Shown piece after piece: positions 12,445 to 61,759 of a stretch of 64,000 nt of DNA. Source of the stretch: Alphaproteobacteria bacterium (GTDB lineage Bacteria; Pseudomonadota; Alphaproteobacteria; MPNO01; UBA830). The position numbers and the translations under genes are program-made. The stretch lies in assembly GCA_964291215.2 (NCBI GenBank), contig OZ219791.1, forward strand, positions 96,001 to 160,000. Reading direction: 5' to 3'. The notes below the pieces were generated by a model, which was not told where the DNA came from, did not search any database, and was given only the letters and a program-made list of their open reading frames with translations. Numbering within the stretch: position 1 is the first letter of the stretch; every line of letters starts with the position of its first letter.

Positions 12445-13651
12445 CCCCCGTTCCATAGTGAAGTGCAACACATGATGGGCTGTGGCCATGTGTTTTTAGA
12501 CGCATGATGTTGCGGAGCGGTAGCGGCGAGAGTTGCTGTACAAGATGAAGGGAGCTTGTTCATGTCCAAAGGCTACCGTCACCTACGAAGAGCGATGCCA
12601 GATTGAGGCAGAAAAGCGGTCTTTCACAAGGTGCGATTGCTCGGCAGCTAGGCCGATCAACAATTTTCCGGGAGATCAAGCGCAACACCGGGGGACGGGG
12701 TCACCGTCACAAGCAGGCGCAAAGGATGGCAGAAACGCGCCGCAGGACAGACTCGTCTGTTTCCTGGCGGTTGACGCCTCGGGTTGAAGCTCAGAAAAAG
12801 CTGCGGGAGGGCCCCGAGCAGCGGCCGTTTTCGACTGGAGGGCCGTGGGTCGGCAACGGATCCATGATCGCCGAAGATCGGAGAGCTGGGGGCGTCTTGT
12901 GGAAGAAGCTTCGGCGGCGCGGCAAGAAGCCGAACTGGAAGGGCGGATGCCATTCCGGCCGGGTGGACATTTCCGAGCGCCCTGCGGAGGCAAAGGAACG
13001 GATCGGCGACTGGGAACCATCATCGGCAAAGCTCACAGTGGAGCTGTCGTGTCGCTGGTTGATCGTGCCACGAAATACACCTTGCCGGGTGGACAGAAAG
13101 ACACGGTCGGTTCGGTCATGATCCGCCTGCTCGGCTCTGGTGCGCTATTGGTCCACACAATCACAACGGCAAGGAGTTCGCAGACCACAGGCGTGTCGCA
13201 CTTGACGCAGATTTCTTCTTCGCCTTTCCATTCCTGGGAGCGCGGCTTGAATGAGCACACCAACGGCCTGGTGCGGGAGTACTTCCCGAAGGGCACGGAC
13301 TTTCGCGCGATATGCAACGAAGATGTTCAGAAGGTACAGGATCGGATCAACACTCGGAAAGTCCCGGGATCGCTGACGGAGGTAATCTTGAAGTGAAACC
13401 GCGCTGACCATCTGCGCCATGTTCCGAAGCCGTAACGTGCAGCAGGGTCCATGCCGCGCGACGGCGGAATAGTGGCTTGAAGTCGACAAAGGCGTTGCAT
13501 AAGCTCGGTGTTGAAGGAACTGAAGCTGTTCCCAGGCGGAATCGAGAGGGGCAGAGGGGGAAATTTGCGCAACATCCGGCCCTCATCTCCGTTCGGGCTA
13601 CGCCCTCACTGCGATGCGGGCCGGATGTTGCACTTCAGACTGGAAGTGGGG
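12445..13651 (+). mobile_element. IS30-family element (degenerate)
   Basis: EERCQIEA..IARQLGRSTIFREIKRN, GDWE, SWERGLNEHTNGLVREYFPKG. Imperfect IRs CCCCCGTTCCATAGTGAAGTGCAAC / GTTGCACTTCAGACTGGAAGTGGGG. No matching TSD. Confidence 0.9.
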
Positions 13652-13983
13652 TCCATGTAGAACACCGCCAGAACGGGGCTTAGCAGATGCATGCAAAGCG
13701 GCATGTCCGACTTTTCCGGCTTGATCCGGTGACGCATGTCGAAAACCGCGATCTGTCCCGGTTTGACGCTACAGCCGCAGCCCTCGTTCCGGATCACCTC
13801 GGCCACGATCTCGTAGTCGTCCAGCCAGGTCACGCCCAGCCGCCGACGCCCCGACAAGAGGTTCTTCACCTCGGGGGAAAGCCGGTTGAAATCCTCGTCA
13901 CTCGGATACGGCGCCCGCAATTCCTCCAATCCGTCACTATCAAGATAGTCGTGTGGGTAATGACGCGTGGCCTTGTCAGACAT
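13652..13983 (-). pseudogene. Hypothetical Cys-containing protein, 3' truncated by IS30
   Basis: AGGAGAGG RBS before ATG (MSDKATRH...GCGC...PLCMH). Frame runs into the IS30 end. Confidence 0.55.
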
Positions 13984-14088
13984 CCCCAATCCTCTCCTGA
14001 TCGGTTCCCCAGCAGGATGACCGACAGATCGCCATCCCGTAAGCGTGGTGCGCGCCACGCTTGTTTTCAACGCCTGAACTGGGGCAGA

Positions 14089-15705: not shown

Positions 15706-16768
15706 TAGTCATCTGGAACTGAAGTAAGTATAATTGTATGATGGCGGTCGGAGTGTGAACACGGAGGTCATGGCGATGCCACGGGACGGCCCTTGGCGGT
15801 GCTGGTCTTGAGTAATCGGTCGTATCTGGAGGCGCAGGTTCGCCGCCACCGTGTGGCGCGCTCGCTGTCGGCCGCATAATCCTGCGTTGCGCGGACGGGC
15901 TTGGCAACAAGGCGGTGGCCGCAGAGATCGGCGTGCACACCGTCGGCAAGTGGCGCAAGCGCTTTGTCAAGGACCGCATCGAGGGGCTGAGCCGGGACGC
16001 CCGCGGAGCATCGCGGACGAGAAGGTGGCGGAAGTGATCGAGCGCACGCTCACCTCGACGCCCGCGACCCACTGGTCGCTGCGCTCGATGGCGAAGGAGG
16101 CGGGGCTGACGTCGATCTGGCGCATCTGGGGCGCCTTCGGCCTGCACCGGGCCGAGACGTTCAAGCTCTCTCGTGATCCGCACTTCGTCGACAAGGTCCG
16201 CGACATCCTCTCGCCGCTGGATCGCGCGCTGGGCGTCGACGAAAAGAGCTAGGCCCGCACCCAGCCGGTCCTGCTGCCCGGCATCCCTGAGCGGCGCACC
16301 CATGACTACAAGCGCAACGGAACGACCTCGCTGTTCGCCGCGTCGCCACCGGCGCGGTCATCGGCAACAGACGCCACCGGGCCAAGGAGTTCCTCGACTT
16401 CCTCAAGGTGATCGACCGCAATGTTCCGGACGGCCTCGACATCCACATCGTCATGGACAACTACGCCACCCACAAGACCGCCGCGGTCAAAGCCTAGCTG
16501 GCTCGGCGGCCGCACTGGCACGTCCACTTCACGCCGACATCCGCCTCGTGCAGGTCGAGCGCTGGTTCGCCGAACTGACCCGCAAGCAGTTGCAGCGTGG
16601 CCGCTCGACCCTGCAACTCGAAACCGACATCCGGGCCTTCAACCCACAACGAAAATCCCAAGCCCTTCAAGTGGACAAAGTCCGCTGACGAAATCCTCGC
16701 CGCCGTCAAGCGCTTCTGTCTCCGCGTCGAACAAAACTTATGCCACGAACTTTAGATTCAGGTGATTA
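15706..16768 (+). mobile_element. IS630-family element type 1 (degenerate)
   Basis: HWSLRSMA, VDEKS, DIHIVMDNYATHK, VERWFAELT. Ends TAGTCATCTGGAACTGAAGT / ACTTTAGATTCAGGTGATTA. Confidence 0.85.
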
Positions 16769-16789
16769 GATTGGTAGATGACTTGTGTG

Positions 16790-17076: not shown

Positions 17077-17124
17077 GTTTCACCTGCTGGATGAATTAAC
17101 CGTTGCGTCGGCGCTGTTATGTGA

Positions 17125-18311
17125 CCCCCGTTCCATAGTGAAGTGTAACACATGATGGGCTGTGGCCATGTGTTTTTAGACGCATGATGTTGCGGAGCGG
17201 TAGCGGCGAGAGTTGCTGTACAAGATGAAGGGAGCTTGTTCATGTCCAAAGGCTACCGTCACCTACGAAGAGCGATGCCAGATTGAGGCGTTACAGAAAA
17301 GCGGTCTTTCACAAGGTGCGATTGCTCGGCAGCTGGGCCGATCAACAATTTTCCGGGAGATCAAGCGCAACACCGGGGGACGGGGTTACCGTCACAAGCA
17401 GGCGCAAAGAATGGCAGAAACGCGCCGCAGGGCAGCCTCGTCTGTTTCCTGGCGGTTGACGCCTCGGGCTGAAGCTCAGAAAAAGCTGCGGGAGGGCCCC
17501 GAGCAGCGGCCGTTTTCGACTGGAAGGCCGTGAACGGATCCATGATCGCATTCATGAAGATCGGAGAGCCGGGGGCGTCTTGTGGAAGAAGCTTCGGCGG
17601 CGCGGCAAGAAGCCGAACTGGAAGGGCGGATGCCATTCTGGCCGGGTGGACATTTCCGAGCGCCCTGCGGAGGCAAAGGAACGGGTCGGCGACTGGGAGC
17701 CATCATCGGCAAAGCTCACAGTGGAGCTGTCGTGTCGCTCGTGCCACGAAATACACCTTGCTGGGTGGACAGAAAGACACGGTCGGTATGATCCGCCTGC
17801 TCGGCTCTGGTGCGCTATTGGTCCACACAATCACAACGGCAAGGAGTTCGCAGACCACAGGCGTGTCGCACTTGACGCAGATTTCTTCTTCGCCTTTCCA
17901 TTCTTGGGAGCGCGGCTTGAATGAGCACACCAACGGCCTGGTGCGGGAGTACTTCCCGAAGGGCACGGACTTTCGCGCGACATGCAACGAAGATGTTCAG
18001 AAGGTGCGGCTCAACACTCGGAAAGTCCCGGGATCGCCGACGGAGGTAATCTTGAAGTGAAACCGCCCTGACCATCTGCGTTCCAAAGCCGCAACGTGCA
18101 GCAGGGTCCATGCCGCGCGACGGCGGAATAGTGGCTTGAAGCCGACAAAGGCGTTGCATAAGCTCGATGTTGAAGGAACTGAAGCTGTTCCCAGGCGGAA
18201 TCGAGAGGGGCAGAGGGGAAAAATTTGTGCAACACCCGGCCCTCATCTCCGTTCGGGCTACGCCCTCACTGCGATGAGGGCCGGGTGTTGCATTTCAGAC
18301 TGGAAGTGGGG
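17125..18311 (+). mobile_element. IS30-family element (degenerate)
   Basis: Same family as 12445-13651. Flanked by TGA on both sides (possible 3-bp TSD). Confidence 0.9.
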
Positions 18312-18360: not shown

Positions 18361-18978
18361 ATGGCTCGGCCTCGCTCCCAGCGCCAGATCGCCCACGCCC
18401 TTCTGGAAAAGCGCGGAATCATGCGCCTGGCGGAGCTGCATGAGGCCGGTGTCACCGCAGCAACGGTCAGCCGTATGGAGCGGGACGGTGAAGTTATTCG
18501 GCTCTCACGGGGGCTATACCAACTCCCCGACGCCGCGCTTGATGTGAGCCACAGCCTCGCAGAAGCCGCCAAACGAACGCCGAAGGGCGTCGTTTGCCTC
18601 GTTTCCGCTCTCGCATTTCACGGCCTGACCGATCAACTGCCGAGAAGGGTCTGGATGGCGACCGGTAAGAAGGACTGGGCTCCAAAGCCTGACGGCGCAC
18701 CTATCCGCGTTGTTCGCTTCACCGAAAGCCTGCTCGCCGAAGGGGTCGAGACTTACATGATCGAGGGCGTTTCCGTAAAGGTGTTCGATGTCGCCAAGAC
18801 CGTCGCGGATTGCTTCAGGCACCGAAACAAGATCGGTCTCTCAGTCGCCATCGAAGGTCTCCAGGAGACGCTGCGCCAGCGCAAGGCGACGCCGGCGGAG
18901 ATTGCCAGGCAGGCAGAGCGGGGAGGCGTTTCCACTGTGATCCGGCCCTATCTTGAAGCGCTGACTGCCAATGCCTAA
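18361..18978 (+). CDS. abiEi: Type IV TA antitoxin AbiEi (wHTH)
   Basis: RLSRGLYQL, GVVCLVSALAFHGLT, KTVADCFRHRNKIG. Overlaps the AbiEii gene. Confidence 0.88.
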   Translation: MARPRSQRQIAHALLEKRGIMRLAELHEAGVTAATVSRMERDGEVIRLSRGLYQLPDAALDVSHSLAEAAKRTPKGVVCLVSALAFHGLTDQLPRRVWMATGKKDWAPKPDGAPIRVVRFTESLLAEGVETYMIEGVSVKVFDVAKTVADCFRHRNKIGLSVAIEGLQETLRQRKATPAEIARQAERGGVSTVIRPYLEALTANA

Positions 18979-19451
18979 AGAGATAAAGAACATTGGGGCG
19001 TCAGTGCGCGCCCGCCTTCTGAACCTTTCCAAGGCGAGCGGCCAGAGTTTCGACTTGGTGCTGACGCGCTTCGCGCTTGAGCGTCTTCTATTCCGGCTTA
19101 GCCAATCTCGCTACGCCGATCGCTTCGTGCTCAAGGGCGCGATGTTGCTGATGAGTTGGCTCGACGAGCCGCATCGCGGCACGCGCGACCTCGACTTGCT
19201 GGCGTTCGGGGATCCCAACGCCGACGCCATGCTCGCGACGTTTCGGGAAATCCTGGCACAAGATGCGGGCGACGGCGTGGTATTCGATGCGGATGCGCTG
19301 CGCGTCGATCGTATCCGCGAGGAACTCGAATATGGCGGCCTTCGACTCCGCACGACTGCGTCGATCAGCGGCGCACGGATCAACCTGATGATCGACATCG
19401 GATTCGGCGACGCGTTGGAGCCTGGCTCCGAGTTGATCGACTATCCGGTCA
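18971..19451 (+). pseudogene. abiEii: AbiEii nucleotidyltransferase toxin, 3' truncated
   Basis: SVRARLLN, ERLLFRL, FVLKGAML...RGTRDLDLL, IDIGFGD. Stops at the IS end at 19452. Confidence 0.85.
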
Positions 19452-21151
19452 CAAGGTGATCCCATGCTTGTTGATGTGATGTGATCGGAGTCCTGATCGC
19501 GGCGCGGGGCGCGATTGGTCGGCGTATCCGGGGCGAGCGAGAGGCCTTGGTTGCCGGGCTCGAAAGCTTGCGGTTTCTGTCGGGGAGAGAGACGCGGTCA
19601 GCCTGGTCTTGTGATTGCGTGCAGGACCTGCTTGCGCTTGTCGGCATGGTGGGAAGCTGTTGAAGGGTTTGGGCAGCTTGTTGCGGATGATGAGTGCGAG
19701 GGTGATCGCGTTGTTTGCGGGCGCGTTCGGAGCATGGAGTCGTCTTCGCGGAAGGTGGCATCGCGGACATGATGATGGCTCTCGACCCCCCGGTGTCCGC
19801 GATTCCATGCGAGCAACTGTTGCGGCGAGGCGCGTTCGGCCGAGGTCATGGCGTGTTCCGTATTTCCTGAATTCGACGCGCCGGGTGACGCGGAAGATCT
19901 GCCTGACATAGTTGATCATCTTCGCTAGCGGGGTGAAGATGGTGCGCTGGCGGCCATGCGCGGGCTTTTCGCTGTAGCGCTGGCGGTCTTCCAGTTGATG
20001 CTCTCTCGAAGGTGCGTTGCCCTTGACCATCAGTCCGCGCGACGGGTCTCGATGATCAGCCTCGCGGGTGGTGTGGAGCGCGTCGAGGGTGAGCAGACGG
20101 CCGTCGCGGCGTGGACGGCAGCGATCTCCCCGTCGTGACAGTTGAGGATCGAATGCCGGCCAGCGAGACCGTCTCGTAATGATCCTCGCCGGTGCGCTTG
20201 CCGTCGACCGCGTTGCCGACCTGCGGCTGCGCGCCGCATCCTCGATCCATCCCGGGTCGGTGTTCTGCAGCACCCGGTGCACGGTCGATTTGGAGACCGG
20301 CTTGTCCCTGTTCTTCCATGCTGCTCCAGCTCCTTCTGCGTCGTAGTGCGCCGCCGCAACCGTGCCGGTTCGCAAGCCAGCAAAATCACGCACAGCACCG
20401 AGGCGATGCGGTGCCCCTGCGCACGCCGGAAAGCGCCGCTGATAAATCGAGCGCAACTCCTGCGCCGACCAGTGGCGCCCGCAACTCCCACGCCACAGGA
20501 AGCGGCGAACGATCCCGCAGCCGACATCGCGACGCAGCGGAAACACGTAAAGATCCTTCGCCTCCCCGGTCGGTATAGCGCCCGCTGGCGCGCGCATAGC
20601 TCCTGCCAACGCACTCCCAGTTCGCCGCCTTGTACATGGTGCCGCTGAACTTCGTCGGCAAGACAAACGACTCCGCAACAAGCAACGGATGGCCGTACGC
20701 AGCCTCCCAGTCGCCGCCGCACCATCCGCGACAACGCAAACGAGGCAAGGCCCGGAAACGACCACCAGGAACAACAAACCTCGTGTTGTTCCCGGCAACC
20801 GCCTGAACTGTTCCTCGCGGCGCCAGCCAATCCAACGGGTGCGCAGCTGAGGGCGCCCGTCTGCCAGCCCGCAGCACCAATCCACCGCCCGCGCCAGGTA
20901 AACACGCAGACCTCGACCGGCAAACTGCTTGAAACCAAGATACGGTCAACAACACGGTTCCAGCGACATCAGGCCGCGCAAGGCGCACAACCACATCCCG
21001 GAGCGCAAAACCCTCCAGAGTCGTCTCAAAAAAATCCGCTGCCCCCACGACAACGGATACTATGTCGCTTCACAAAAAGCCAGCGAAAATGCGAATCATC
21101 CTGAACAAGCAAAACCGACCCTTCCAACAAACCTAGCGTGGGATCGCCGTG
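19452..21151 (-). mobile_element. ISAs1-family element with N-terminal DUF4338-like region (degenerate)
   Basis: NNTRF, YGHPLLVAESFV...GTMYKAANW (DUF4338-like); TLDALHT, VKGNA, RGHRGVE..HHVRDATFRED (ISAs1). IRs CAAGGTGATCCCATGCT / AGCGTGGGATCGCCGTG. Confidence 0.75.
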
Positions 21152-22343: not shown

Positions 22344-23773
22344 ATGGAAAAAATCGGGGGCTCAATCCGGCTCAGCGCCGACGATCTCGTCGGCTACCTG
22401 AACTGCCATCACCTTTCCGGGCTGGACCGCGCTGTCGCCGAAGGCAAGCGCGCGAAGCCGAAGGTCTGGGACCCGCTGCTCGAGATTCTCTGGGAACGGG
22501 GATCGATTCACGAGCAGAACTATGTCGATCATCTGAAAGGCAGCGGGCTCGGCGTTATCAGGATCGACGGCGTCGATGTCACGGCTGCCGCTGTCGCCGA
22601 GACCCTTGCCGCGATGAAGGACGGCACCGAGGTGATCGTCCAGGATGCGCTCGCGCATGACGGCTGGGCCGGCCGCGCCGATATTCTGCGCCGCATCGAA
22701 ACGCCCAGCGCCCTGGGTGCATGGTCTTACGAAGCGATCGATACCAAGCTCGCCCGCGAGACCAAGGCGGGCACGGTGCTCCAGCTCTGCCTGTATTCCG
22801 ACCTGCTGCACGAGGCACAGGGCGCGCCGCCGGAATGGATGTACGTGATTGCGCCGTGGTCGGATTTCGAGCCGCAATGCTACCGCTTCGCTGACTGTGG
22901 CGCTTACTTCCGCCAGGTCAAAAACGGGTTGTTGCGCAGCCTGGCCGGACAGAGCGCGCCAGAAACCTATCCCGATCCGGTCGTGCACTGCGATATCTGC
23001 CGGTGGCGCGAGGATTGCGACCAGCGCCGGCGCGATGACGATCATCTGTGCCTCGTCGCCGACATCTCCAAACTCCAGATAAATGAACTGAAGGCACACG
23101 GGATCGCCACAACGCAGGATCTTGCGCAGATGGAACTGCCGCTCGCCTGGAAGCCGGAGCGCGGCTCGGCCGAAGCGATAACCCGCATTCGCGAACAGGC
23201 GCGGATTCAGTGGGAGGCCCGGCAGGCCGGCGAGCGCAAATGCGAGGTTCTGCCGCCCGAACACGGCTTCGGTCTGACGCGCCTGCCGGATCCGTCAAAA
23301 GGCGACATATTTCTCGACCTCGAAGGCGACCCGTTCGTCGGCGAGCACGGCCTCAAATATCTGTTCGGCTATCTCTACGAAGGCGAAGACGGACAATGCG
23401 TTTACGAGGGCGACTGGGCCTTTACCCGCGCTGAGGAAAAACAGGCCTTCGAACGGTTCGTCGATTTCGTGATGGCGCGGTGGGAGGCCTGTCCCGACCT
23501 TCACATCTACCATTACGTGCCCTACGAACCGGCCGCGCTCAAGCGCCTGATGGGCCGGTATGCCAGCCGGGAAGAAGAGATCGACCGGATGCTGCGGGCA
23601 GGGCTGTTCGTCGATCTTTATCAGGTCGTGCGGCACGCGGTGCGCACGAGCGTGGAAAGCTATTCGATCAAGCAGCTCGAACCGTTTTTCGGCTTCGAAC
23701 GCGATACCGCCCTCCCCGACACCAATGCGGCGCTCGCCAACCTGCAGGCCAATCTCGAACTCGATGACGCGAC
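22344..23773 (+). pseudogene. TM0106-family RecB-like nuclease, 3' truncated by IS630
   Basis: LSADDLVGYLNCHH, GRADIL..YEAIDTKLA...LQLCLY, CDICRWREDC, FLDLEGDP, HIYHY. The expected C-terminal part is replaced by IS sequence. Confidence 0.85.
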
Positions 23774-24118
23774 CTCGATCACTTCCGCCACCTTCTCGTC
23801 CGCGATGCTCCGCGGGCGTCCCGGCCGGGGCTCAGCCCCTCGATGCGGTCCTTGACAAAGCGCTTGCGCCACTTGCCGACGGTGTGCACGCCGATCTCTG
23901 CGGCCACCGCCTTGTTGCCAAGCCCGTCCGCGCAACGCAGGATTATGCGGCTCCGACAGCGAGCGCGCCACACGGTGGCGGCGAACCTGCGCCTCCAGAT
24001 ACGACCGATTACTCAAGACCAGCACCGCCAAGGGCCGTCCCGTGGCATCGCCATGACCTCCGTGTTCACACTCCGACCGCCATCATACAATTATACTTAC
24101 TTCAGTTCCAGATGATTA
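23774..24118 (-). mobile_element. IS630 type 1 left-end fragment
   Basis: Reverse complement of ~15706-16042. Confidence 0.85.
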
Positions 24119-26547: not shown

Positions 26548-27814
26548 CGTTCAGGTTTCCGTGCGTTGAGGTTAATCGAAGAAAAGAGTGCTTTGATGTA
26601 ACTGCTCACCCCCTGGTTTCGGCTTGATGTCGGGGTAGAGCAACGAACGGGTTTTCGTGGAGATTTGACACTGCAGGCCGATTCGTTTAGTGGTGGTAAT
26701 CGAGAACGACGGAGACCGCCAGTGGGCTACTTTGGATCGAAGGCGACGAGCGGGCTGTGCCAGCTGCTTCCGGGGCTCCAGCCCCCGCATGATCTGTATG
26801 TGGAAACGCATCTCGGAGGCGGCGCGCTGATGAAGCGCAAGGCCGGGTGATGGCGACGGGCGGCGCGCGAGGAGTTCGAAGCGGCCAAGGCGCTGCCGGC
26901 AAGGTGGCGGAAGAGGCCGTGATCCGCGTCCTCGTCATCCTGCTCGACATCATCATCGTCGTCCTTCTGGAGAAGACCACGCACGAGCCGGAACTCCGGT
27001 CTGCCGCCGTCACAGACGGACAAGAGCGTGCCGGGAGCAACGGCCCGAAGCCGAACCGGCAGATGGGCGACAACCTGCCATCGTCGAGGAGACGGTCGCG
27101 GCCTGCGACGCCTGCGGCGCCGACGGCCCCGTCGATCGGGAGCGCCGCACGACATCGTGTTCGAGGTCGTCGAGCGCCGAGATCAAGGAATGCCCGAAGT
27201 GCAAGGCCCGGGGCCGGTTCCCCGACAACATCCCGTGCAGTACGGCATCGGCATCCAGGCCCTCGTTATCAACCTGCTGGTCGCCCAGATGCTGTCCCTG
27301 CGCCGTGCCGTCGCGCTCGTGCAGGCGATATCAAGCTCTCCGAGGCCTCGGCTATGCTTTCACGATGCGTCATGGGAGGAGGCCGCCGTGGCGCACCTCC
27401 TGCAACGCCCGATGTCGACGATTTCGGATCAACAGCAAGTGGCTTCATGTCGTGGGACCCTGACGTGCAAGTTCCCGCACCGCAAGCGCGGGCAAGAGAT
27501 CGGCCCGTGCTACAAGGGCGTCCTGGGCCTCGTACATGGGCCAGTGTAGCCACCAGCGGCAGCCACCTGCTGCGCAAACTGACCTTTGTCGTCGAGGCTA
27601 CCGCGCGACTGATGAAGAGCCTGCTCCCTGCCACAAGGTCAACAAGAGCGCATCCAAAACCCTGAACGACGCCGGGCGCAAGCGCTACCGCACCATCAGG
27701 GCGCCAGGGAACTGCCCGACATCCCGCCGCCGCCGAAAGGAAAACGCATAGCAAACGCGCACAACCTGCACGAACGTCTCGTGAAACACGAAAACCTGCG
27801 CTTCATAGACAACC

Positions 27815-46904: not shown

Positions 46905-49780
46905 CACGATGATCCCACGCTGCTAATCCGGCGATGACTGGCGAGATTTTTACAGTTTGCGTCGCGCTGCAATCGTGCCGCCAAGGCTCGATGGGACCTT
47001 CTCGGCACAAAAATTACGATCAAGGAGGCGATCTGTGATGAGCCGAGCCCCAACGCATTCGGATTTCGCGTCTCCGAATCAGGTAAGCGTTCGTTCGTGC
47101 GGTGAGGTGTTGTTGTTTTCGTCCGTTTGACGGGCTTTTGTCAGGGAGTTCCAGCGTCACCCGGAGCGGTTTCGTGCACCGGGATGCGCGGTGAGGGGCA
47201 CTGGCGCCATGCCGTGTTTTCCGCATTGGTTGCGGTTTTGTCCCGGCGCTGCGGAGGAGGAACTGAGCGCCATTCTGTGCCGGTTGCAGGGTTCAGCGAT
47301 TGAGGGTCCGCTTCCAGTCCTTGCGGAGCGGGCCAGATGTCCTTCTTCGGCTTCTGTCATGTCGGTCGTGGCGGCCGCTGGTTGTTCCGACGCGGCCGGC
47401 AGACGCCGCGGCGCGGGACCTCGACCAAGGTTTGGCAGGGCACGGGCGGGGTGTTGCAGCGCGCGGTCCATGCGGCGGTCGAGAAGCAGCGGCTCGCCGC
47501 ATGGTAGCGCATTTGCGGCGCCGCCAGGCGCCGAGGTAGTGTCAGCGGGCGGAGCTCGTCGAGAGTCTTCGGGGCGGCGGTGTGATCAGCTTCGGGGCTG
47601 GCGGCGGCAGAAGGCGCGGGCGATGGGGTTCGCTCCGTGATCGTCGCAGCAGCCGCATCTCCGCGACCATGAAGTCGCACCCGTGGCAGCGGCACTCGAC
47701 CTCGCCGCTTACGGCGGCGCCGCGAATCTCCGCCGCCTCTCCGGGCTCACGGAAACCAGGGCGACAGATCGCCGGGCCGCCGTTCTCCGCGCAGGCGCCA
47801 GCGCAGAACGTCGAGGCCGCTCCTCTCGACCGTGCCGTGTACATGACAGCCGTCCATGCTGTCGGAACCGAAGCCGGGTTTCCGCCCGGGCCCCTGACAG
47901 CCCTTTCCCCGAAATTGTTGTCCATGGTCGACGAACACGCGATGGTTGAGCGCAGCGGCCTGCCTTCCGGCGCCGCTTTCGGAAGCCTCGGCGCTTCCGC
48001 AAACAGCGACCGCAGTCTCCAGCGCCGCCTGCGCGGCCTCGAACGCCGCCGGAAGCAAGGCAGTCGAGCCGTGTTCAGGCGGCAGATCTCCGCGATCGAT
48101 CCATTCCCACCCCTCCAGCTGCGGCCGGCGCAGTCCGGAAAGTCGCGTCGACAATGCGCCCGGCAACAGCACAGGATGATGAAGGGCCACAGGCGCGCCA
48201 GCTTCTTGCAGGCGCCGTAGCGGCCGCAGACATGGGGGCCGTCCGCGAACAGCTTCGCCGCGACCTCGGCGCTGCGCGAGGGAGAGAACCGCGTCACGGC
48301 TGACCGATGTCTGGAGCCAGGCGCGACTTCCGGACCTCCCTCGGGGCCTGGATGCATCGGCATGGCGCAAACCCCGGTGCGCGAGGATCGCGTCCCGAAG
48401 CGGCTCGAACAGGGGCAGCATCTGGCTCGCTGGCCAGCGTTCCCGGCGAAAGCCCCTGGACGCGGCGCGCATGCACGCGCTCGTGCAGCACATGCGTCCA
48501 CACCCGAAGGCGGTGCCGGGAAACAGCCGCCACCGGTGAACCGGGGCAGTCACAGCCCCGGCGGACAATCCGCCGCTTTTGATCTCGATGATCCTGGTGC
48601 GAACCGTTGGCAACGCAGCACAAGCAGGCGTCCTCCGCCACCTCCAGCCGCCCTCCACCTCCTCGAGCGCCGGCGGCGGCCAGGAGTGCCGTGCTGCTGG
48701 CCGCGCTTCGATGACGCCCGCGGCCTCTTCTCGCTCTTGCGCCCGTACGACCTGTTCGAACGAAGCTTGTCGTTCTCCGACCCGACCCTTCAGAACCTTC
48801 ATCGCGGTCTTCAGGCCGGCATTCTCCATGCGCAGCGACACCACCGTCGACCGCTTCCGCGCGCCGGCCTCGGCAAGAAGCTGGCCCGGACGCGCAACCT
48901 CCTGCTTCAGCGCAAGAGACTGCTTCGCCGTCCGCCGAATTTCCCTGACCTCCGCACGGGCAGCTGCCAGCTTCTCGCGGTTGCTCTCGAAAATCGCCTT
49001 CAGGGAATTCGCGCGGCCCCTCCACCTCCTGCAAGCGCAGCTCCTCACAGCGCCCCTCCGCCGCCTCGGCTCGAATACGCTCGCGATCGTACAGGGACTT
49101 CCAGGTGGCCGAATCACGACACGACGACTGCGGCATGTCGCCAGCGGCGTCCGCACCCGATGATGACACGAAATCCTCGATGCACATGACCATGCACGAC
49201 CTGGTGGCACCGCCAAAAAAATTTACCAGTGCCCTTCTTCGAATTACCAAAACAAACCTCGGTGCAGATCGTCATCACCGCATGAACGAACGCTTACGAT
49301 TGCACTGGACGAACTGCTGGATGCGCTGCCGAAGAAGGGAAAGCCTGGTCGGGCGGACCGGGAAGCTGACTCGACGTTCCGGAAGATGCGCCGACAGCAT
49401 CCGGCCGTGGAGTCGGCGATCAACAATCTTGAGCAACGCGGCATGGACCGGGTCCTGTGGGGCGGACGGCTTTGCGCGGATGGTGGCGCTGCCCATGGTC
49501 GCCTTCAATGTCCACCGCCTGCTGTTGCACGGACGAGCCCGACGACGAAAACGCGCCGCCTGACGGCGGCGTCCCTCTACCCCACCCACCCGCCGGGAGC
49601 GGGAACGAAGCCGCTCGCCCAGCTTCTCGGCTGGAAGAGCCCTGATACCGCCGCGAATCAGCAGGAATCCTTCCGAAAACGGAGCGGGACCCGGAAGGGC
49701 GATCAAACCAGAAATTTCGCTGGAATCTCAGCCAAAACGGTCATTTCCGCGCGGGCACGAATTAGCATGGGATCGTCGTG
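46905..49780 (+). mobile_element. ISNCY/IS5-like element, interrupted and partly deleted
   Basis: IRs CACGATGATCCCACGCT / AGCATGGGATCGTCGTG. Near-perfect 9-bp flanking repeat GACCGCCGT / GGCCGCCGT. C-terminal remnant RRQHPAVESAINNLE..G.DGFARMVAL. Confidence 0.7.
47083..49247 (-). mobile_element. Second IS66-family element type (degenerate)
   Basis: LFEPLRDAILAH..LRHAD, CCRAHCRRDF, MDNNFGERAVRGP. Ends begin GTAAG / GTAAT. No TSD seen. Confidence 0.7.
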
Positions 49781-53043: not shown

Positions 53044-53047
<4 letters not shown>

Positions 53048-53240: not shown

Positions 53241-55336
53241 CCCCACTTCCAGTCTGAAGTGCAACACCCGGCCCTCATCGCAGTGAGGGCGTAGCCCGAA
53301 CGGAGATGAGGGCCGGGTGTTGCGCAAATCTTTCCCCTCTGCCCCTCTCGATTCCGCCTGGAAACAGCTTCAGTTCCTTCAACATCGAGCTTATGCAACG
53401 CCTTTGTCGGCTTCAAGCCACTATTCCGCCGTCGCGCGGCATGGACCCTGCTGCACGTTGCGGCTACGGAACGCAGATGGTCAGGGCGGTTTCACTTCAA
53501 GATTACCTCCGTCGGCGATCCCGGGACTTTCCGAGTGTTGAGCCGCACCTTCTGAACATCTTCGTTGCATGTCGCGCGAAAGTCCGTGCCCTTCGGGAAG
53601 TACTCCCGCACCAGGCCGTTGGTGTGCTCATTCAAGCCGCGCTCCCAGGAATGGAAAGGCGAAGAAGAAATCTGCGTCAAGTGCGACACGCCTGTGGTCT
53701 GCGAACTCCTTGCCGTTGTGATTGTGTGGACCAATAGCGCACCAGAGCCGAGCAGGCGGATCATACCAACCGTGTCTTTCTGTCCACCCAGCAAGGTGTA
53801 TTTCGTGGCACGAGCGACACGACAGCTCCACTGTGAGCTTTGCCGATGATGGCTCCCAGTCGCCGATCCGTTCCTTTGCCTCCGCAGGGCGCTCGGAAAT
53901 GTCCACCCGGCCGGAATGGCATTTGCCCTTCCAGTTCGGCTTCTTGCCGCGCCGCCGAAGCTTCTTCCACAAGGCGCCCCCAGCTCTCCGATCTTCATGA
54001 ATGCGATCATGGATCCGTTGCCGACCCACGGCCCTCCAGTCGAAAACGGCCGCTGCTCGGGGCCCTCCCGCAGCTTTTTCTGAGCTTCAGCCCGAGGCGT
54101 CAACCGCCAGGGTAACTGCTCACCCCCTGGTTCCGGCTTGATGTCGGGGTAGAGTAACGAACGGGTTTTCATGGAGATTTGACACTGCAGGCCGATTCGT
54201 TTAGTGGTGGTCATCGAGAACGATGGGGACCGCCAGTGGGCTACTTTGGATCGAAGGCGACGAGCGGACTGTGCCAGCTGCTTCCGGGGCTCCAGCCCCC
54301 GCATGATCTGTATGTGGAAATGCATCCGGGAGGCGGCGCGCTGATGAAGCGCAAGGCCGGGCGGGGGAGTACCGGAAGATGCCGCCGGGCGAGCGCCAGG
54401 CGATGCTCGCGGCGAGGCCGGGTGATGGCGACGGGCGGCGCGCGAGAAGTTCGAAGCGACCAAGGCGCTGCCGGCAAGGTGTCGGAAGAGGCCGTCATCC
54501 GCGTCCTCGTCATCCTGCTCGACATCCTCATCGTCGTCCTTCTGGAGAAGACCACGCACGAGCCGGAACTCCGGTCTGCCGCCGTCACAGACGGACAAGA
54601 GCGTGCCGGGAGCAAGGGCCCGAAGCCGAACCGGCAGATGGGCGACAACCTGCCATCGTCGAGGAGACGGTCGCGGCCTGCGACGCCTGCGGCGCCGACG
54701 GCCCCGTCGAGCGCCGCACGACATCGTGTTCGAGGTCGCGCCGCGTCGATGCCGAGGAATGCCCGAAGTGCAAGGCCCGGTTCCCCGACAACATCCCGTG
54801 CAGTACGGCATCCAGGCCCTCGTCCCTGCTGGTCGCCCGGATGCTGTCCCTGCGCCGTCGCGCTCGTGCAGGCGATATCAAGCTCTCCGAGGCCTCGGCC
54901 ATGCTTTCACGATGCGTCATGGGAGGAGGCCGCCGTGGCGCACCTCCTGCAACGCCCGATGTCGACGATTTCGGATCAACGGCAAGTGGCTCCATGTCGT
55001 CGGGACGTGCAAGTTCCCGCACCGCAAGCAAGAGATCGGCCCGTGCTACAAGGGCGTCCTGGGCCTCGTACATGGCAGTGTAGCCACCAGCGGCAGCGAC
55101 CTGCTGCGCGAACTGACCTTTGTCGTCGAGGCTGCCGCGCGACTGATGAAGAGCCTGCTCCCTGCCACAAGGTCAACAAGAGCGCATCCAGGACCCTGAA
55201 CGAGGCCGGGCGCTACCGCACCATCAGGGCGCCAGGGAACTGCCCGACATCCCGCCAAAAGGAAAACGCATCGCAAACGCGCACAACCTGCACGAACGTC
55301 TCGTGAAACACGAAAACCTGCGCTTCACAGACGACC

Positions 55337-57802
55337 ATCGCGGTAGGGAACCGGGTTACCCCCCGCACAGAACCAGACGTGCGCTGTTCGCATCCGGCTC
55401 CTCCCCTGACGACAAGGCGCTGGTTTGGCCACGGATGCTGGCTCAGTGGGCAGCGGCGAGGGTGTCTATGTCCCCGGTGAAGTCCTTTTGGGAGCGTCGC
55501 CGAAGGGCACGCAGCTGTTTGCATTGGTGTATGAACTTCTGCAGGCTGCTTCCCGGAACGGCGTAGTAGCAGCCGTTGATAACTCACCACTTGGCCGTTT
55601 CGTGCCGGTTATCGTGCCACCGCCTGCGCAAGGCCTCCTTGATCCGCCGCAGGGTGCCCGTTTGCGAGATGGACCGACCCTGAACCTGCCTTTCCTCGTC
55701 TGTTCGCAGAAGTGCGTCATGCCGAGGAAGTCGAACGTCTTGCCCTGCCTACGCTTCCGGCGGTTCGCTCTGGCAAACCGACCGAACTCGATGATTTTCC
55801 GGGTGCAGTTCAAGTGGGCCAGTCTCTCCCCAAGGTCTCAGCGCCGCGCGTCGCTCAGATGCTGAAAGCCGCACACGAAGTCGTCCGCATAATGATCGTG
55901 TCGCCTCCAGCCATCCGCTTGCGCCAATGGTTCTGGAACCAGTCGTACGTAGTGCAGGTAGACGTTCGCAAGGCATGGCGCCGCCCCTTGCGGTGTTCCC
56001 TTGCCAGTCGGTCCCTTCCATGACGCCGGCGTCACTTGATGATCAGACCCCCCGATCCGTTTCCCGAGCATCGCGACCAGATGGTCGCGGTCGAGATTGT
56101 CGAAGAACCCACGGGCGTCAACGATCCAGTTGACCTTCCGCCGTTCCACCGTGACGGCGCATGATGCGCCCCGGCCGGAAGCCGTAACTAAACCCGAGGA
56201 ACTCCGTCTCGCGGCACCAGAATCACACCGCCCGCTGAAGAATCTTGTCCGAGGCAAGCGGTCGTTGCCCTCCATCCTCCTTGGGTATGTAAACCCCGGA
56301 GGCGCCCGGTACGCACCCCTGTGCACACGGGCGTGCAGGCAGTTCCACACCCTCCGCGTACGCTTGCCACACAACGCCCCGCCGCCGCGTCCTTCCTCAA
56401 GGAATGGAACGCATCGTGCAGAACGTCGACCGTCACGTGGTGGAGTAAAGACGCTCTTCCGGGTTCCTCTTCGCTACCTGCGTTCAGCCGCCTGTGACCC
56501 CCGCTTCTGCGCGCGGCGCGGGCTTTGGCCAACCGCATTGCCCTTCCCTCCAACAACTCCGCAGGCTCCGAAGAACCCTTGTTCGCCGCCTTCAGCGGTA
56601 CTATGGCCGAATCTGACTTCTCGTTCATCATCGGTTTACGGATTAGTTCCTTTCCTCTGCGGCCCCTCCACGACAGAGGGGCAAGACCTCCCAGGTCCCT
56701 GCTTCGGCCATGGTTCTCGGACCCCGCGGAGCCCCCGTTCGCCTCACCAACGCGGCTCGTGGGGTGTTGCCCACTCGGACGACCTCGGCACTCCGGTTTC
56801 AAAGCATCTCGTGGCTCAATAGCCTGGTCGGGTAGGCCACTGGCGCGCGCATCCTTAGGCGAAGGCTTTATCCGTCACCGCTCTTTCGATTGCGGGCGGG
56901 TTCGCAGAATCGCCATAGACCACGTTTCCAGCAGCCCCCCTAAAATTCCGTACGTCCGGTTTTCCCGGTTCAAGCATCAGGCACCCACTTGGAGTTCGGT
57001 GCGAAGCCTTCCCACGCCATAGTCAAGGCTGACCCAACCATACCCACGGCATCTCCGAGCGTTTGCTCCGTCCTTCGGCCTTGCAGTCTGTCGGTCGGTG
57101 CCGGTCTCTGCGTACCGGCTTGACCTGCCGCATAGGCTACCTGAGCCCTGAGGTCCTCGCTCGGGACGGGTTGTGTTGTCCCGCCCCTTAGGCGACCTCA
57201 TCCGCCAGTCAGGAGGACTCCGCGTCCTTTCCCGTCTCCCGGTTATAGACGCGGTCCTTGACGGGTCTCTTCATCCTGTCTGTCCTCCTCACCTTCCGGT
57301 CTTTCACTGCTGATCTGTCCCGAATTGCCGCCGTCTGTACCCCGGGGAACCCGATGCGTGTTCCTCAGTTCTTCCGCATCGACACTGGCCATCGGGTAGC
57401 AAGCAGACCCTTGGCGTTCACCGTCTATCCCACAAATCAGCTTCGTGTGGGTGGGGAATTTCGGGGCTTCGTCCAATCGTTCGCTTTCGCTACGGCCCTC
57501 CGGTTTGCTCGCCGCCCTGGCTGACCGGACCGGCTGGACACTGCGTTCCAGCCAGCCCACGACGGCTTTCTACGTCCCAGCTCGCTGATCCAGGGTCGCC
57601 CCTGAACCAATGCTACGGCGCCAAACTGAGAATTGCGGGACTTTCACCCGCAAGATCAGCAGCTAGACTCGCTGCACGCCTGCCGCTCCCCAACGCTTCG
57701 CCTGGCGCCTCACGACGCATGGTTCACGGAGAAAGTGGTGGTTAGCCTCTCTTCCTACCGGGACTTGCACCCGGCCACATTCCACCAGTTTGCCTGGCGC
57801 AC
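55337..57802 (-). mobile_element. Group II intron R3 (degenerate RT), containing ORF-less intron A
   Basis: GTGCG...CCTACCGCGAT termini; YADD remnant. Confidence 0.9.
56827..57677 (-). mobile_element. ORF-less group II intron variant A (851 bp)
   Basis: Same precise site as in R2. Retains the putative EBS1 loop at 57399-57404. Confidence 0.85.
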
Positions 57803-59444
57803 ATCGCGGTAGGGAACCGGGTTACCCCGGTCCCCCCGCACAGAACCGGACGTGCGCTGTTCGCATCCGGCTCCTCCCCTGACGACAAGGCGCTGATTTG
57901 GCCACGGGTGGCGGATGCTGGCTCAGTGGGCAGCGGTGAGGGTGTCTACGTCCCCGGTGAAGTCCTTTTGGGAGCGTCGCCGAAGGGCACGCAGCTGTTT
58001 GCATTGGTGTATGAACTTCTGCAGGCTGCTTCCTGGAACGGCGTAGTAGCAGCCGTTGATAACTCACCACTTGGCCGTTTCGTGCCGGTTATCGTGCCAC
58101 CGCCTGCGCAAGGCCTCCTTGATCCGCCGCAGGGTGCCCGTTTGCGAGATGGACCGACCCTGAACCTGCCTTTCCTCGTCTGTTCGCAGAAGTGCGTCAT
58201 GCCGAGGAAGTCGAACGTCTTGCCCTGCTTCCGGCGGTTTGCTCTGGCAAACCGACCGAACTCGATGATTTTCCGGGTGCAGTTCAAGTGGGCCAGTCTC
58301 TCCCCAAGGTCTCGGAGAAAGCGCCGCGCGTCGCCCAGATGCTGAAAGCCGCACACGAAGTCATCCGCATAATGATCGTGTCGCCTCCAGCCATCCGCTT
58401 GCGCCAGTGGTTCTGGAACCAGTCGTACGTAGTGCAGGTAGACGTTCGCAAGGCATGGCGATACAATCGCCCCTTGCGGTGTTCCCTTGCCAGTCGGTCC
58501 CTTCCATGACGCCGGCGTTCAGCCACTTGATGATCAGACCCCCCGATCCGTTTCCCGAGCATCGCGACCAGGTGGTCGCGGTCGAGATTGTCGAAGAACC
58601 CACGGGCGTCAACGATCCAGTTGACCTTCCGCCGTTCCACCGTGACGGCATCGAGCGCATGATGCGCCCCGGCCGGAAGCCGTAACTAAACCCGAGGAAC
58701 TCCGTCTCGCGGCACCAGAATCACACCGCCCGCTGAAGAATCTTGTCCGAGGCAAGCGGTCGTTGCCCTCCATCCTCCTTGGGTATGTAAACCCCGGAGG
58801 CGCCCGGTACGCACCCCTGTGCACACGGGCGTGCAGGTCAACCAGTTCCACACCCTCCGCATACGCTTGCCACACAACGCCGTCCACGCCCGCCGCCGCG
58901 TCCTTCCTCAAGGAATGGAACGCATCGTGCAGAGCGTCGACCGTCACGTGGTGGAGTAAAGACGCTCTTCCGGGTTCCTCTTCGCTACCTGCGTTCAGCC
59001 ACCTGTGACCCCCGCTTCTGCGCGCGGCGCGGGCTTTGGCCAACCGCATTGCCCTTCCCTCCAGCAACTCCGCAGGCTCCGAAGAACCCTTGTTCGCCGC
59101 CTTCAACGGTACTATGGCCGAATCTGACTTCTCGTTCATCATCGGTTTACGGATTAGTTCCTTTCCTCTGCGGCCCCTCCACGACAGAGGGGCAAGACCT
59201 CCCAGGTCCCTGCTTCGGCCATGGTTCTCGGACCCCGCGGAGCCCCCGTTCGCCTCACCAACGCGGCTCGTTGCCTTCGGCCACGACCTCGGCACTCCGG
59301 TTTCAAAGCATCTCGTGGCTCAATAGCCTGCCGCTCCCCAACGCTTCGCCTGGCGCCTCACGACGCATGGTTCACGGAGAAAGTGGTGGTTAGCCTCTCT
59401 CGGGACTTGCACCCGGCAACATTCCACCAGTTTGCCTGGCGCAC
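57803..59444 (-). mobile_element. Group II intron R4 (degenerate RT)
   Basis: Abuts R3 and R5 exactly. Has the most complete domain V/VI. Confidence 0.9.
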
Positions 59445-61105
59445 ATTGCGGTAGGGAACCGGGTTACCCCCCGCACAGAACCGGACGTGCGCTGTTCGCT
59501 CCTCCCCTGACGACAAGGCGCTGGTTTGGCCACGGGTGGCGGATGCTGGCTCAGTGGGCAGCGGCGAGGGTGTCTATGTCCCCGGTGAAGTCCTTTTGGG
59601 AGCGTCGCCGAAGGGCACGCAGCCGTTTGCATTGGTGTATGAACCCCTGCAGGGATTGACTGCTTCCCGGGACGGCGTAGTAGCAGCCGTTGATGACTCA
59701 CCACTTGGCCGTTTCGTGCCGGTTGTCGTGCCATCGCATGCGCAAGGCCCCCTTGATCCGCCGCAGGGTGCCCGTTTGCGAGACGGTTTGCGACCGACCC
59801 TGAACCTGCCTTTCCTCGTCTGTTCGCAGAAGTGCGTCATGCCGAGGAAGTCGAACGTCTTGCCCTGCTTCCGGCGGTTCGCTCTGGCAAACCGACCGAA
59901 CTCGATGATTGTCCGGGTGCAGTTCAAGTGGGCCAGCCTCTCCCCAAGGTCCCGGAGAAAGCGCTGCGCATCGCCCAGATGCTGAAAGCCGCACACGAAG
60001 TCGTCCGCATAATGATCGTGTCGCCTCCAGCCATCCGCTTGCGCCAGTGGTTCTGGAACCAGTCGCACGTAGTGCAGGTAAACGTTCGCGAGGCAGGGCG
60101 ATACAATCGCCCCCTGCGGTGTTCCCTTGCCCGTATCCGACCAGTCGGTCCCTTCCATGACGCCGGCGTTTAGCCACTTGATGATCAGACCCCCCGATCC
60201 GTTTCCCGAGCATCGCAATCAGGTGGTCGCGGTCGAGATTGTCGAAGAACCCGCGGGCGTCAACGATCCAGTTGACCTTCCGCCGTTCCACCGTGACGGC
60301 GTCGAGCGCGTGATGCGCCCCGGCCGGAAACCGTAACTAAACCCGAGGAACTCCGTTTCGTAGAGCGGCACCAGAATCACACTGCCCGCTGAAGAATTTT
60401 GTCCGAGGCAAGCGGTCGTTGCCCTCCATCCTCCTTGGGTATGTAAACCCTGGAGGCGCCCGGTACGCACCCCTGTGCACACGGGCGTGCAGGCAGTTCC
60501 ACACCCTCCGCATACGCTTGCCACACAACGCCCCGCCGCCGCGTCCTTCCTCAAGGAATGGAACGCGTCGTGCAGAGCGTCGACCGTCACGTGGTGGAGT
60601 AAAGACGCTCTTCCGGGTTCCTCTTCGCTACCTGCGTTCAGCCGCCTGTGACCCCCGCTTCTGCGCGCGGCGCGGGCCAACCGCATTGCCCTTGGCCTTC
60701 CCTCCAGCAACTCCGCAGGCTCCGAAGAACCCTTGTTCGCCGCCTTCAACGGTACTATGGCCGGATCTGACTTCTCGTTCATCATCGGTTTATGGAATAG
60801 TTCCTTTCCTCTGCGGCCCCTCCACGACAGAGGGGCGATTGAAAGACCTCCCAGGTCCCTGCTTCGGCCATGGTTCTCGGACCCCGCGGAGCCCCCCTCA
60901 CCAACGCGGCTCGCGGGGTGTTGCCCACTTGGACGACCTCGGCACTCCGGTTTCAAAGCATCTCGTGGCTCAATAGCCCGGCCTGCCGCTCCCCAACGCT
61001 TCGCCTGACGCCTCACGACGCATGGTTCACGGAGAAAGTGGTGGTTAGCCTCTCTTCCTGCCGGGACTTGCACCCGGCAACATTCCACCAGTTAGCCTGG
61101 CGCAC
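59445..61105 (-). mobile_element. Group II intron R5 (degenerate RT, more diverged)
   Basis: 3' end ...CCTACCGCAAT; GTPQGAIVSPCLANVYLHY. Its 5' end adjoins the IS66 sequence ccaacgtc. Confidence 0.9.
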
Positions 61106-61759
61106 CCAACGTCAACTTCACCAACAATGCCGGAGAACAGAAGATCAGGATGGCAAAGGTCAAGGTGTCCGGATGCTTCCGCTCCACGCAAAAGCATGGT
61201 GCCGGGGCTCAAGCTACCTCACCTCCATGGCCGCACTCGGCTACAATCATCACGTCGCCACCCGGATCGCCCTCGACGGAAAAGTCGCAGACATCATCAA
61301 CGAGCACTACGACCAATCAGAACCCAACTAGGGGTGAGTAGATACCCGCCAGGAAACAGACGAGGCGGCCCTGCGGCGCGTTTCTGCCATCCTTTGCGCC
61401 TGCTTGTGACGGTAACCCCGTCCCCCGGTGTTGCGCTTGATCTCCCGGAAAATTGTTGATCGGCCCAGCTGCCGAGCAATCGCACCTTGTGAAAGACCGC
61501 TTTTCTGCCTCAATCTGGCATCGCTCTTCGTAGGTGACGGTAGCCTTTGGACATGAACAAGCTCCCTCCATCTTGTACAGGAACTCTCGCCGCTGCTGGA
61601 CAGCTCCGCAACATCATGCGTCTAAAAACACATGGCCACAGCCCATCATGTGTTGCACTTCACTATGGAACGGGGGTGTAAAAAAATCTCCCGCACCAAC
61701 CCGCAACCCCGCAAAGCCCAGGTACTGTCTTGAAAAATCAGACAGAATTTAGCGTAAGA

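Follow-up and report, generated by a model that had tools for sequence, protein, structure and literature searches.

The window analysed here is a 64,000-nucleotide stretch of the genome of an uncultured alphaproteobacterium (G000:C2:96001-160000) that is crowded with insertion sequences (IS) and group II introns, nearly all of which are shortened by deletions of 5-7 bp. The deletions that copies share probably arise once, at near-random sites, and are then probably passed on, preferentially from a copy with the deletion to one without it, through short-tract gene conversion; this would be a form of deletion drive. The process is best filed as an extreme, size-restricted case of biased gene conversion that is fed by an unusual deletion signature. 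Observed directly are the narrow size window, a low genome-wide level of the signature, scaling of the load with copy number, sharing of deletions after insertion, dependence on homology, and intact genes for mismatch repair (MMR) and recombination. G000 comprises 6.15 Mb in two contigs, with 64% GC and 99% completeness. Repeated 21-mers, paralogs included, make up ~32% of it, and its IS load is extreme: the ten families of the window, full copies and fragments together, span ~0.9 Mb, and the largest, the IS66-like family F4, has ~180-200 copies. The names IS30, IS630, IS66 and ISAzo13 are presumed from the translations, while IS256 is based on Pfam and the group II intron on Rfam.

The ten IS and intron families are represented by 378 copies of full length, in which deletions were called against a union reference for each family; deletions fixed in every copy escape such calling, and the references retain a few frame errors. 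Of 9324 deletion calls, 7334 (79%) are 5-7 bp long, and 373 of the 378 copies carry at least one of this size. By family, a copy holds on average 7-42 deletions, those of 5-7 bp averaging 4-35, as against about one insertion or fewer. The calls represent 763 distinct deletions, 466 of them 5-7 bp. Sizes of 4, 5, 6, 7 and 8 bp account for 10, 92, 238, 136 and 28 of these, with 5 and 7 bp as prominent as 6 bp, and with 3 and 9 bp rare. Genome-private deletions show the same peak (36 of 80 at 5-7 bp), and a smaller peak at 11-14 bp would fit adjacent pairs of deletions. In the window itself, 15 full-length copies from the ten families hold 317 deletions, 260 of them 5-7 bp, compared with 378 substitutions.

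An earlier reading of the window from its letters alone (the sequence-only reading) had reported small deletions, many of them of 5-9 bp, in every IS and intron copy. All seven of the examples it quoted are present in the window, five in a nested IS630-like pair and two in IS66-like copies (37526 versus 492; 37551 versus 511). The small deletions are real, but the class is 5-7 bp and not 5-9 bp. Likewise, the statement that every copy is hit holds for the 373 full copies above and fails for a young 12-copy IS66-like element and a two-copy IS256, both intact.

The sequence-only reading had further described many of the deletions as removing one of two short direct repeats, and proposed that multicopy or mobile DNA is nicked or cut and then joined through microhomology. 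Replication slippage, as in Ca. Sodalis pierantonius, is a related proposal. Microhomology of at least 3 bp is enriched, being found in 132 of 576 distinct events of 4-12 bp (23% versus 7.5% at random) and in 47 of 105 gaps in single-copy DNA versus 9%; slippage therefore contributes a fraction of new events. At least 2 bp is present at 107 of 271 window deletions of 5-9 bp. Most deletions, however, do not remove a direct repeat: 346 of the 576 events (60%) have 0-1 bp of homology. Full tandem units make up 10 of the 466 distinct 5-7 bp events, so these events are deletions. The size is fixed at 5-7 bp, as against 2-100 bp in Sodalis in the available text of PMC4948707. The end-joining genes listed below were not found among the families searched, RecA is intact, and host paralogs are hit as well. 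Joining through microhomology, or slippage, is thus extremely improbable as the general explanation.

The deletion ends carry a weak preference, with G at -5, C at -3 and, inside the deletion, not-C, then a pyrimidine, then C; TC stands at +1 in 91 of 225 events versus 44 expected. The cross-validated area under the curve (AUC) of this motif is 0.70, and left-end and right-end scores are uncorrelated. Derived on the G000 repeats, the motif recurs in two independent sets, the events in single-copy DNA (n = 26, p = 0.002) and those of the related genome G002 (n = 21, p = 0.013). A weak motif at both ends suggests an enzyme. A strong motif or a protospacer-adjacent motif (PAM) at the deletions is ruled out by an AUC of only 0.70. 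Hairpin or fold preference, imperfect repeats and a GANTC motif gave no signal at the deletions, and C-to-T changes have no context preference, with a rate of 0.12-0.22 in all 16 contexts.

The 5-7 bp deletions are genuine, and they are neither an assembly artefact nor plain drift. A consensus or polishing error in repeats might be suspected of a two-contig assembly with so many repeated 21-mers, and the independent material consists of k-mer contigs rather than raw reads, from three public runs (X1, X2, X3) of one study whose platform is off record and of which X1 may be the source sample. Unique pieces in X1 nevertheless match with zero differences at depth 42-54. Two runs of genome-unique 31-mers predicted from the window, 47649-47735 and 49566-49651, recur base for base as the exact coordinates of X1 contigs at depth 50, the single-copy level. 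Among the 24 of 391 pieces listed, contigs bridge deletion junctions without gaps and with at least 31 letters on each side: X1 at 48005, 48044 and 48105, X2 at 48428, 48578 and 48612, and X3 at 48105 and 48612. Deletions that are absent from the window and present in 50 and 16 other copies occur in all three runs. The related one-contig genome G003 has 1 gap in 16.7 kb of paired IS630 copies with 262 substitutions, and the in-frame filtering of deletions in host paralogs implies selection. An artefact deserves practically no credence, being refuted at the level of contigs. Such patterns in long-read metagenome-assembled genomes are not always errors.

Single-copy DNA carries the signature at roughly 1% of the density in repeats. 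An 807 kb single-copy alignment of G000 with its relative G001 (1.19 Mb fetched of ~5 Mb; 6.9% divergence) contains 105 gaps of 5-7 bp missing in G000 and 8 missing in G001; non-coding DNA (130 kb) accounts for 44 gaps of this size, and the gaps lie well away from repeats, at a median distance of 5.2 kb. Four single-copy genes that are broken by IS and have G001 orthologs hold 0 such deletions in 4244 bp, whereas the IS that broke them carry 8, 17, 24 and 16, or 65 in total. Plain drift is thereby excluded, as the sequence-only reading had argued from IS-broken genes within the window. There the abiEii and TM0106-like stumps are indeed open up to the IS, and int2 is collinear with intact integrases, in one frame over ~920 bp. 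Across the TM0106-like region, contigs of related strains differ by 36-63 substitutions and by no gap. Its intact controls int1, hsdM, hsdR, darG, OYE and the lipoprotein gene are long open frames as well. The rRNA operon, which it had listed among these controls, is present once in G000 and is therefore no test of repeat targeting.

The load rises with copy number. It is 28-199 times the expectation from single-copy DNA without spread. Outside the ten families, 3851 repeat tiles were made and 1929 of them searched; in 1830 of these, gap density climbs with the number of copies, being 0.6/kb for two copies and 13/kb for more than 64, the relation that the sequence-only reading had suggested looking for. 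Multicopy host genes are affected too. Intact multicopy open reading frames (ORFs) other than IS, at up to 10% divergence, hold 79 distinct 6-bp gaps, as against 41 with a length of 3 bp, 4 with 9 bp and 8 with 5 or 7 bp. A single surface-protein family with 11 members contributes 52 of the 79. Among ORFs that are 18-30% diverged, 3-bp gaps again outnumber 6-bp gaps (204 versus 55), as is usual. The lipoprotein family of the window is an exception without a 6-bp excess. Since IS, introns and intact multicopy genes are all affected, the process tracks repetition and is filtered by selection. The proposal of targeting thus stands for repeated DNA and falls for its restriction to mobile elements, given the 6-bp excess in multicopy host genes and the low level in single-copy DNA.

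Most in-frame 6-bp losses occur in a multicopy cassette of large surface proteins of 1300-2200 aa (G000:C1:1117000-1125700, C2:918100-926200 and C2:2933700-2941500), whose labels, including calcium-binding-repeat-like proteins, are presumed from sequence. The lipoprotein gene (window 61677-64000) belongs to a family of 7-10 copies, several of which abut an IS30-like end, suggesting IS-assisted duplication of the family.

Some repeats, and some parts of repeats, are spared. The spared 12-copy IS66-like element (G000:C1:332213-334773 and 11 other sites) has ~0.2% divergence, with 55 gap letters in one copy; it is 89% identical in part to a three-copy element of the related genome G004 and is probably the currently active one. 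The 179-bp repeat of the window, which resembles a miniature inverted-repeat transposable element, is almost spared. In the outer 160 bp of IS, deletions number 0.7-2.6/kb, compared with mostly 12-22/kb at more than 240 bp from the ends. A 3' non-coding hairpin of the IS30-like element, with a perfect 30-bp stem (13569-13631, 18228-18292 and 53261-53323), is nearly free of deletions. Homology also matters. A copy at 86% identity has 0 such deletions, one copy being all that marks this threshold, and a copy at 90% shares 10 of 14. Nearby single-nucleotide polymorphisms (SNPs) reduce the odds of a deletion within ~18-35 bp.

The sequence-only reading envisaged independent cutting of each copy, which does not agree with the identical endpoints that copies share. 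Overlapping deletion variants are at chance level (125 of 378 versus 111 +/- 11), which means that the sites are not recurrent hotspots and rules such hotspots out. A four-copy intron subfamily at four different sites is 92% identical to the main family, from which it differs by 102 diagnostic SNPs; of the 24-31 deletions per copy, 16-21 are common to the main family. Near these shared deletions, some of which lie at most 120 bp from the intron 3' end, diagnostic SNPs are unconverted at 2-12 bp on one side and, at several sites, at 7-14 bp on both sides. Scored in the reverse transcriptase (RT) frame, the diagnostic SNPs lean synonymous (41 versus 28, or 41 of 69; main-family polymorphisms, 49 of 92), so the subfamilies diverged partly while alive. 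Across subfamilies that are 8-10% diverged, identical deletions recur without flanking SNPs.

Six intron copies that are 1-4 SNPs apart carry 7 versus 33-36 deletions. Among 42 disjoint near-identical pairs, selected for at most 4 SNPs and with SNPs near any deletion masked, there are 100 SNPs versus 439 differences in deletion state, 429 of which are seen in other copies. In 6 of the 10 families there is hardly any correlation between the distance of copies in SNPs and their distance in deletions, and copies that are neighbours in the genome share deletions no more than others do (Jaccard 0.49 versus 0.48). Intermediate frequency is reached by 161 of 271 deletions versus 288 of 1790 SNPs (odds ratio 7.6). 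In a toy simulation, unbiased conversion leaves the load flat in copy number, and only biased conversion scales the load with it.

A neutral history would combine a past burst of deletions in founder copies with transposition in trans and unbiased conversion. The ends needed for mobility are spared, as this account expects, and many introns ride in an IS66-like element. In the window, the introns at 27814-30933 and 55337-61105 sit in one IS66-like site and inside each other, twintron-like, and hence travel as passengers. SNP linkage decays within ~20 bp, which indicates heavy conversion, and four-gamete violations are present. Ordinary gene conversion among IS copies is also known, Cordaux in 2009 reportedly having described it in Wolbachia. 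A neutral history cannot, however, yield a load so far above the single-copy rate, and it offers no way for the same deletions to enter subfamilies of 92% identity that were inserted independently without bringing SNPs along. Near-identical young F7 copies hold different subsets of the common deletions, and host paralogs are affected too. This history is therefore quite improbable.

The deletion drive favoured here would operate in two steps. In the first, a lineage-specific process would remove 5-7 bp throughout the genome, leaving the signature that is seen in single-copy DNA; its chemistry would fit either two nicks 5-7 nt apart or the clipping of a 5-7 nt single-strand loop. In the second, copies that are ~90% or more identical, with homology on both sides, would pair and form heteroduplexes containing mismatches and loops of 5-7 nt. 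MutS and MutL would correct or reject mismatches and loops of up to ~4 nt, while loops of 5-7 nt would go uncorrected and be settled in favour of the shorter strand. Each deletion would thus spread through its family while SNP haplotypes persist, and the load would scale with copy number. The outcome is that hardly any older copy still has a live transposase or intron, and that host paralogs keep mainly in-frame losses of 6 bp.

Several points weigh against this drive. Escape from MMR explains the lower size limit, but neither the sharp drop above 7 bp nor why the bias runs in this direction. In four IS families the SNPs are mosaic as well, so that their exclusion from transfer is not absolute. 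The 466 distinct 5-7 bp deletions compare with 70.5 expected from the single-copy rate, an excess of ~6.6-fold that reaches ~20-fold in families F2 and F3. Partial copies, constraint on single-copy non-coding DNA and the erasure of age by conversion narrow this gap, perhaps not fully, so that a higher mutation rate in repeats may be involved too. Only their asymmetry gives the single-copy gaps a polarity, and ~10 of the 105 could be duplications in G001. The protection by mismatches is weak, with ratios of 0.87-0.95, and the sparing of ends could equally reflect selection for mobilisable ends. G001 and G003 share the core repair genes yet lack the signature, and no responsible gene was found among the families searched.

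A further idea is that the process is an evolved, enzyme-driven defence, a counterpart of repeat-induced point mutation (RIP) in which 5-7 bp excision is driven through all homologous repeats and kills whole IS and intron families, and for which type II-C Cas9 or Cas1-Cas2 may supply the activity independently of spacers. This idea is possible but doubtful. In a dedicated RIP-like system, the pairing of repeats would itself trigger a nuclease, through staggered cuts or excision of 5-7 nt, new deletions would form much faster in repeats than elsewhere, and conversion, biased or not, would share them. The excess of distinct deletions over the single-copy rate agrees with it, the fixed size and two-ended preference suggest an enzyme, and it also fits the identity and length thresholds and the occurrence in some congeners and not in others. 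The same signature nevertheless occurs in single-copy DNA far from repeats, the skew towards high frequency and the crossing of subfamilies still need biased copying, the deletions are not centred on polymorphic sites, and the gene families searched hold no candidate. Such a system is unlikely.

Fifteen candidate or repair gene families were searched in five genomes (G000-G004). Ku, LigD, Piwi, ATP ligase, Topo IB and the archaeo-eukaryotic primase (AEP, PF01896) were found in 0 of 5 genomes, although the AEP model matched only archaeal controls, so that bacterial AEPs could be missed, and no separate search for short prokaryotic Argonautes (pAgo) was made. MutS, MutL, RecA, RNase HII, ExoVII, PolI and RuvC are intact in all five. 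Of the genes that the sequence-only reading had named for searching, Cas genes are present, Cas9 among them, whereas pAgo (Piwi), Ku and LigD were not found and MutS and MutL are not lost. NucS was not found in G000, and the deletions are not centred on SNPs, so EndoMS-type cutting at mismatches was rejected. TnpB is present in G000 only below the cut-off. A second Y-family (ImuB-like) gene occurs in G002-G004 and was not found in G000 or G001, a distribution that differs from that of the signature. A comparison covering 24% of G001 gave 205 of its genes as absent or broken in G000; the scan of 89 of these named no DNA-repair gene. A survey of target-site duplications, with a transposase of 5-7 bp target duplication in view as the cutter, returned known families from a greedy family finder.

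Type II-C Cas9 is the only searched family that tracks the signature. II-C cas9 and cas1 are present in G000, G002 and G004, all of which have the signature; in G001 and G003, where it is lacking, neither gene was found. In a natural CRISPR drive, self-spacers would direct II-C Cas9 to cut intact copies, which would be repaired from a copy whose deletion escapes cutting, so that the deletion spreads; in a variant, Cas9 or Cas1-Cas2 would act independently of a guide. According to the available text of PMC4872102, E. coli can withstand weak cutting by Cas9 by means of homologous repair. None of the 194 II-C spacers (16 + 114 + 64), nor any of the other arrays, matches the 10 element references, the G000 repeats or the G002 and G004 loci, the targets covering 0.4 Mb of G002 and 0.16 Mb of G004. 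No PAM-like flanking motif lies at a fixed distance from the deletions. The agreement across 5 of 5 congeners is a 3-of-5 match with a chance of 1 in 10; moreover, G001 is 93% complete and the cas9 of G004 lies in two frames. Small deletions in E. coli needed added non-homologous end joining (NHEJ), again in the part of PMC4872102 available, and Ku and LigD were not found here. A CRISPR drive is very improbable.

The CRISPR loci themselves are as follows. G000 has two. In the type I-G-like locus (G000:C1:574174-581216), Cas3 and a Cas4-Cas1 fusion adjoin an array with 96 spacers; in the type II-C locus (G000:C2:2068488-2069579), an intact Cas9 of 1046 aa adjoins an array with 16. At G004:C1:220946-224132, cas9 aligns in two reading frames and may be broken or simply divergent. 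A spacer of G004 matches a single-copy site in G000 at 28/29 positions, and this match is regarded as uninformative. A further genome, G030, has three Cas9 copies (C3:216402-218972, C8:37874-40444 and C15:207010-209580), 88% identical to that of G000 and all ending at residue 860, and it has many identical IS256 copies.

The signature is observed in at least two species of the genus and is not seen in two others. For G002 (97% 16S identity; 400 kb fetched), repeat pairs show gaps of 4, 5, 6, 7 and 8 bp in numbers of 2, 54, 72, 33 and 1 in 40 kb of pairwise alignment, counts that are non-independent because they are pairwise and that comprise 59 distinct clean events. Gaps in single-copy proteins that are missing from the partner, compared with G000, are two-codon versus one-codon 12 versus 4 in G002 (64 orthologs), 9 versus 0 in G004 (58) and 3 versus 4 in G003 (77). 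For G001 the counts are 2 versus 5, and those missing from G000 are 26 versus 8 (534 orthologs). G004 repeat pairs have no 5-7 bp gaps in 7 kb, so that its signature rests on small protein counts. The IS256 copies of G030 are near-identical and thus uninformative on deletions. Because the signature is present in some congeners and not in others, its cause is mappable by comparative genomics.

The features of the window are collected in Table 1. Elsewhere in the genome, a two-piece (permuted) tmRNA lies at G000:C1:1957012-1957350, an arrangement usual in alphaproteobacteria.

Table 1. Elements, repeats and control genes in the window, with their deletions.
Feature	Position	Strand	Remarks
F4 IS66-like high-copy element, 3' part	1..677	+	carries shared deletions
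Repeat F15	678..1379	.	12 deletions, 8 of 5-7 bp
IS30-like F1 copy	12445..13651	+	13 deletions; name presumed
IS630-like F2 copy	15706..16769	+	20 deletions, 18 of 5-7 bp
IS30-like F1 copy	17125..18311	+	14 deletions
abiEii stump, IS-broken control	18971..19459	+	frame open
IS of family F3	19499..21151	-	44 deletions
TM0106-like nuclease stump, IS630-broken control	22344..23773	+	open; gap-free versus related strains
IS630-like F2 5' fragment	23774..24118	-	
IS66-like F4 copy up to intron insertion site	26598..27814	+	37 gap events
Two nested group II intron/RT copies (F5)	27814..30933	-	37 deletions in first
ISAzo13-like F7 copy	33036..34174	-	15 deletions; name presumed
IS256-family F8 copy	34294..35547	-	15 deletions: one of 12 bp, rest 5-7 bp
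IS66-like F4 copy, longest in genome	36066..37721	+	yet 17 deletions
IS630-like F9 copy	37735..38961	+	16 deletions
Nested IS630-like pair (source of five quoted examples)	38997..41231	+	11 internal 5-9 bp gaps between copies
Single rRNA operon	41406..46554	-	intact, single-copy
179-bp repeat resembling a miniature inverted-repeat transposable element	46905..47082	.	103 full copies; 14 deletions of 5-7 bp across all 103
IS66-like F12 copy	47083..49297	-	38 deletions; several junctions bridged by public-run contigs
Nest of elements	53241..61676	.	IS30-like copy split 53241-54111 + 61346-61676; IS66-like F4 from 54112
Three intron copies in this nest	55337-56827; 57802-59444; 59444-61105		34 deletions each in latter two
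Multicopy lipoprotein gene, control	62263..63993	-	open; family gaps 3 bp: 7, 6 bp: 2

Full-length copies of ten IS and intron families are thus crippled by one narrow class of mutation that scales with copy number. If the drive is true, it offers a handle on the bacterial limits to IS expansion and on biased heteroduplex repair, and removal of 5-7 bp without Ku or LigD would be a new repair chemistry. In the literature searched, which was full-text with most subscription papers outside it, no 5-7 bp deletion load in bacterial repeats is described and no bacterial repeat-directed inactivation comparable to RIP was found.

Among known systems, gene conversion between IS copies, biased or not, is one of the closest. 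It involves homology-dependent transfer from copy to copy and mosaic IS families, with spread of lesions possible, as is found here. Variant sharing in G000 is non-tree-like, with RecA and RuvC intact, and a bias is indicated by one allele class at high frequency and by the scaling with copy number. Unlike ordinary IS conversion, the transfer concerns one size class, has an apparent one-way bias and occurs largely without neighbouring SNPs. In bacterial MMR, loops are corrected efficiently up to ~4 nt and more poorly at 5-8 nt, according to the available text of PMC2504288, and this limit of MutS explains why loops of at least 5 nt behave differently from SNPs and loops of 1-4 nt. Loop-removal activities exist, their E. 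coli proteins being unnamed in that text, and large-loop repair takes loops of up to hundreds of nt; it differs in that the same text describes neither a 5-7 nt window nor a repeat-wide consequence.

The deletional bias of symbionts resembles the present process in its lineage-specific excess of small deletions, partly at short repeats, and in the survival of in-frame sizes in genes (PMC4948707, PMC6054270). In the parts of these studies available, deletion sizes in Ca. Sodalis pierantonius and Ca. Burkholderia either fit a power law biased towards 3n or range over 2-100 bp, as in Sodalis pseudogenes, and the deletions affect all neutral DNA; here neutral single-copy genes are nearly spared, and 5 and 7 bp are prominent where 3 and 9 bp are rare. 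The IS excision enhancer (IEE), NHEJ and alternative end joining are likewise bacterial activities tied to IS loss or to joining at small homologies. As the available text of PMC9943667 has it, IEE needs at least 4 bp of homology and an AEP domain; by contrast, most junctions here lack such homology, and neither AEP (PF01896), Ku nor an ATP-dependent ligase was found in the five genomes. RIP makes C-to-T changes in CpA/TpG context through Rid1 and Dim2 in the pre-meiotic cell, so that copies diverge (PMC12543289, in its available part). As in G000, it acts on repeats whatever their content, is governed by how long and how similar they are, and inactivates the transposon copies. Unlike RIP, the lesion here is a 5-7 bp deletion shared among copies, without a C-to-T context preference and in a bacterial host. 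The process is RIP-like in outcome, yet it is neither RIP nor microhomology-mediated end joining.

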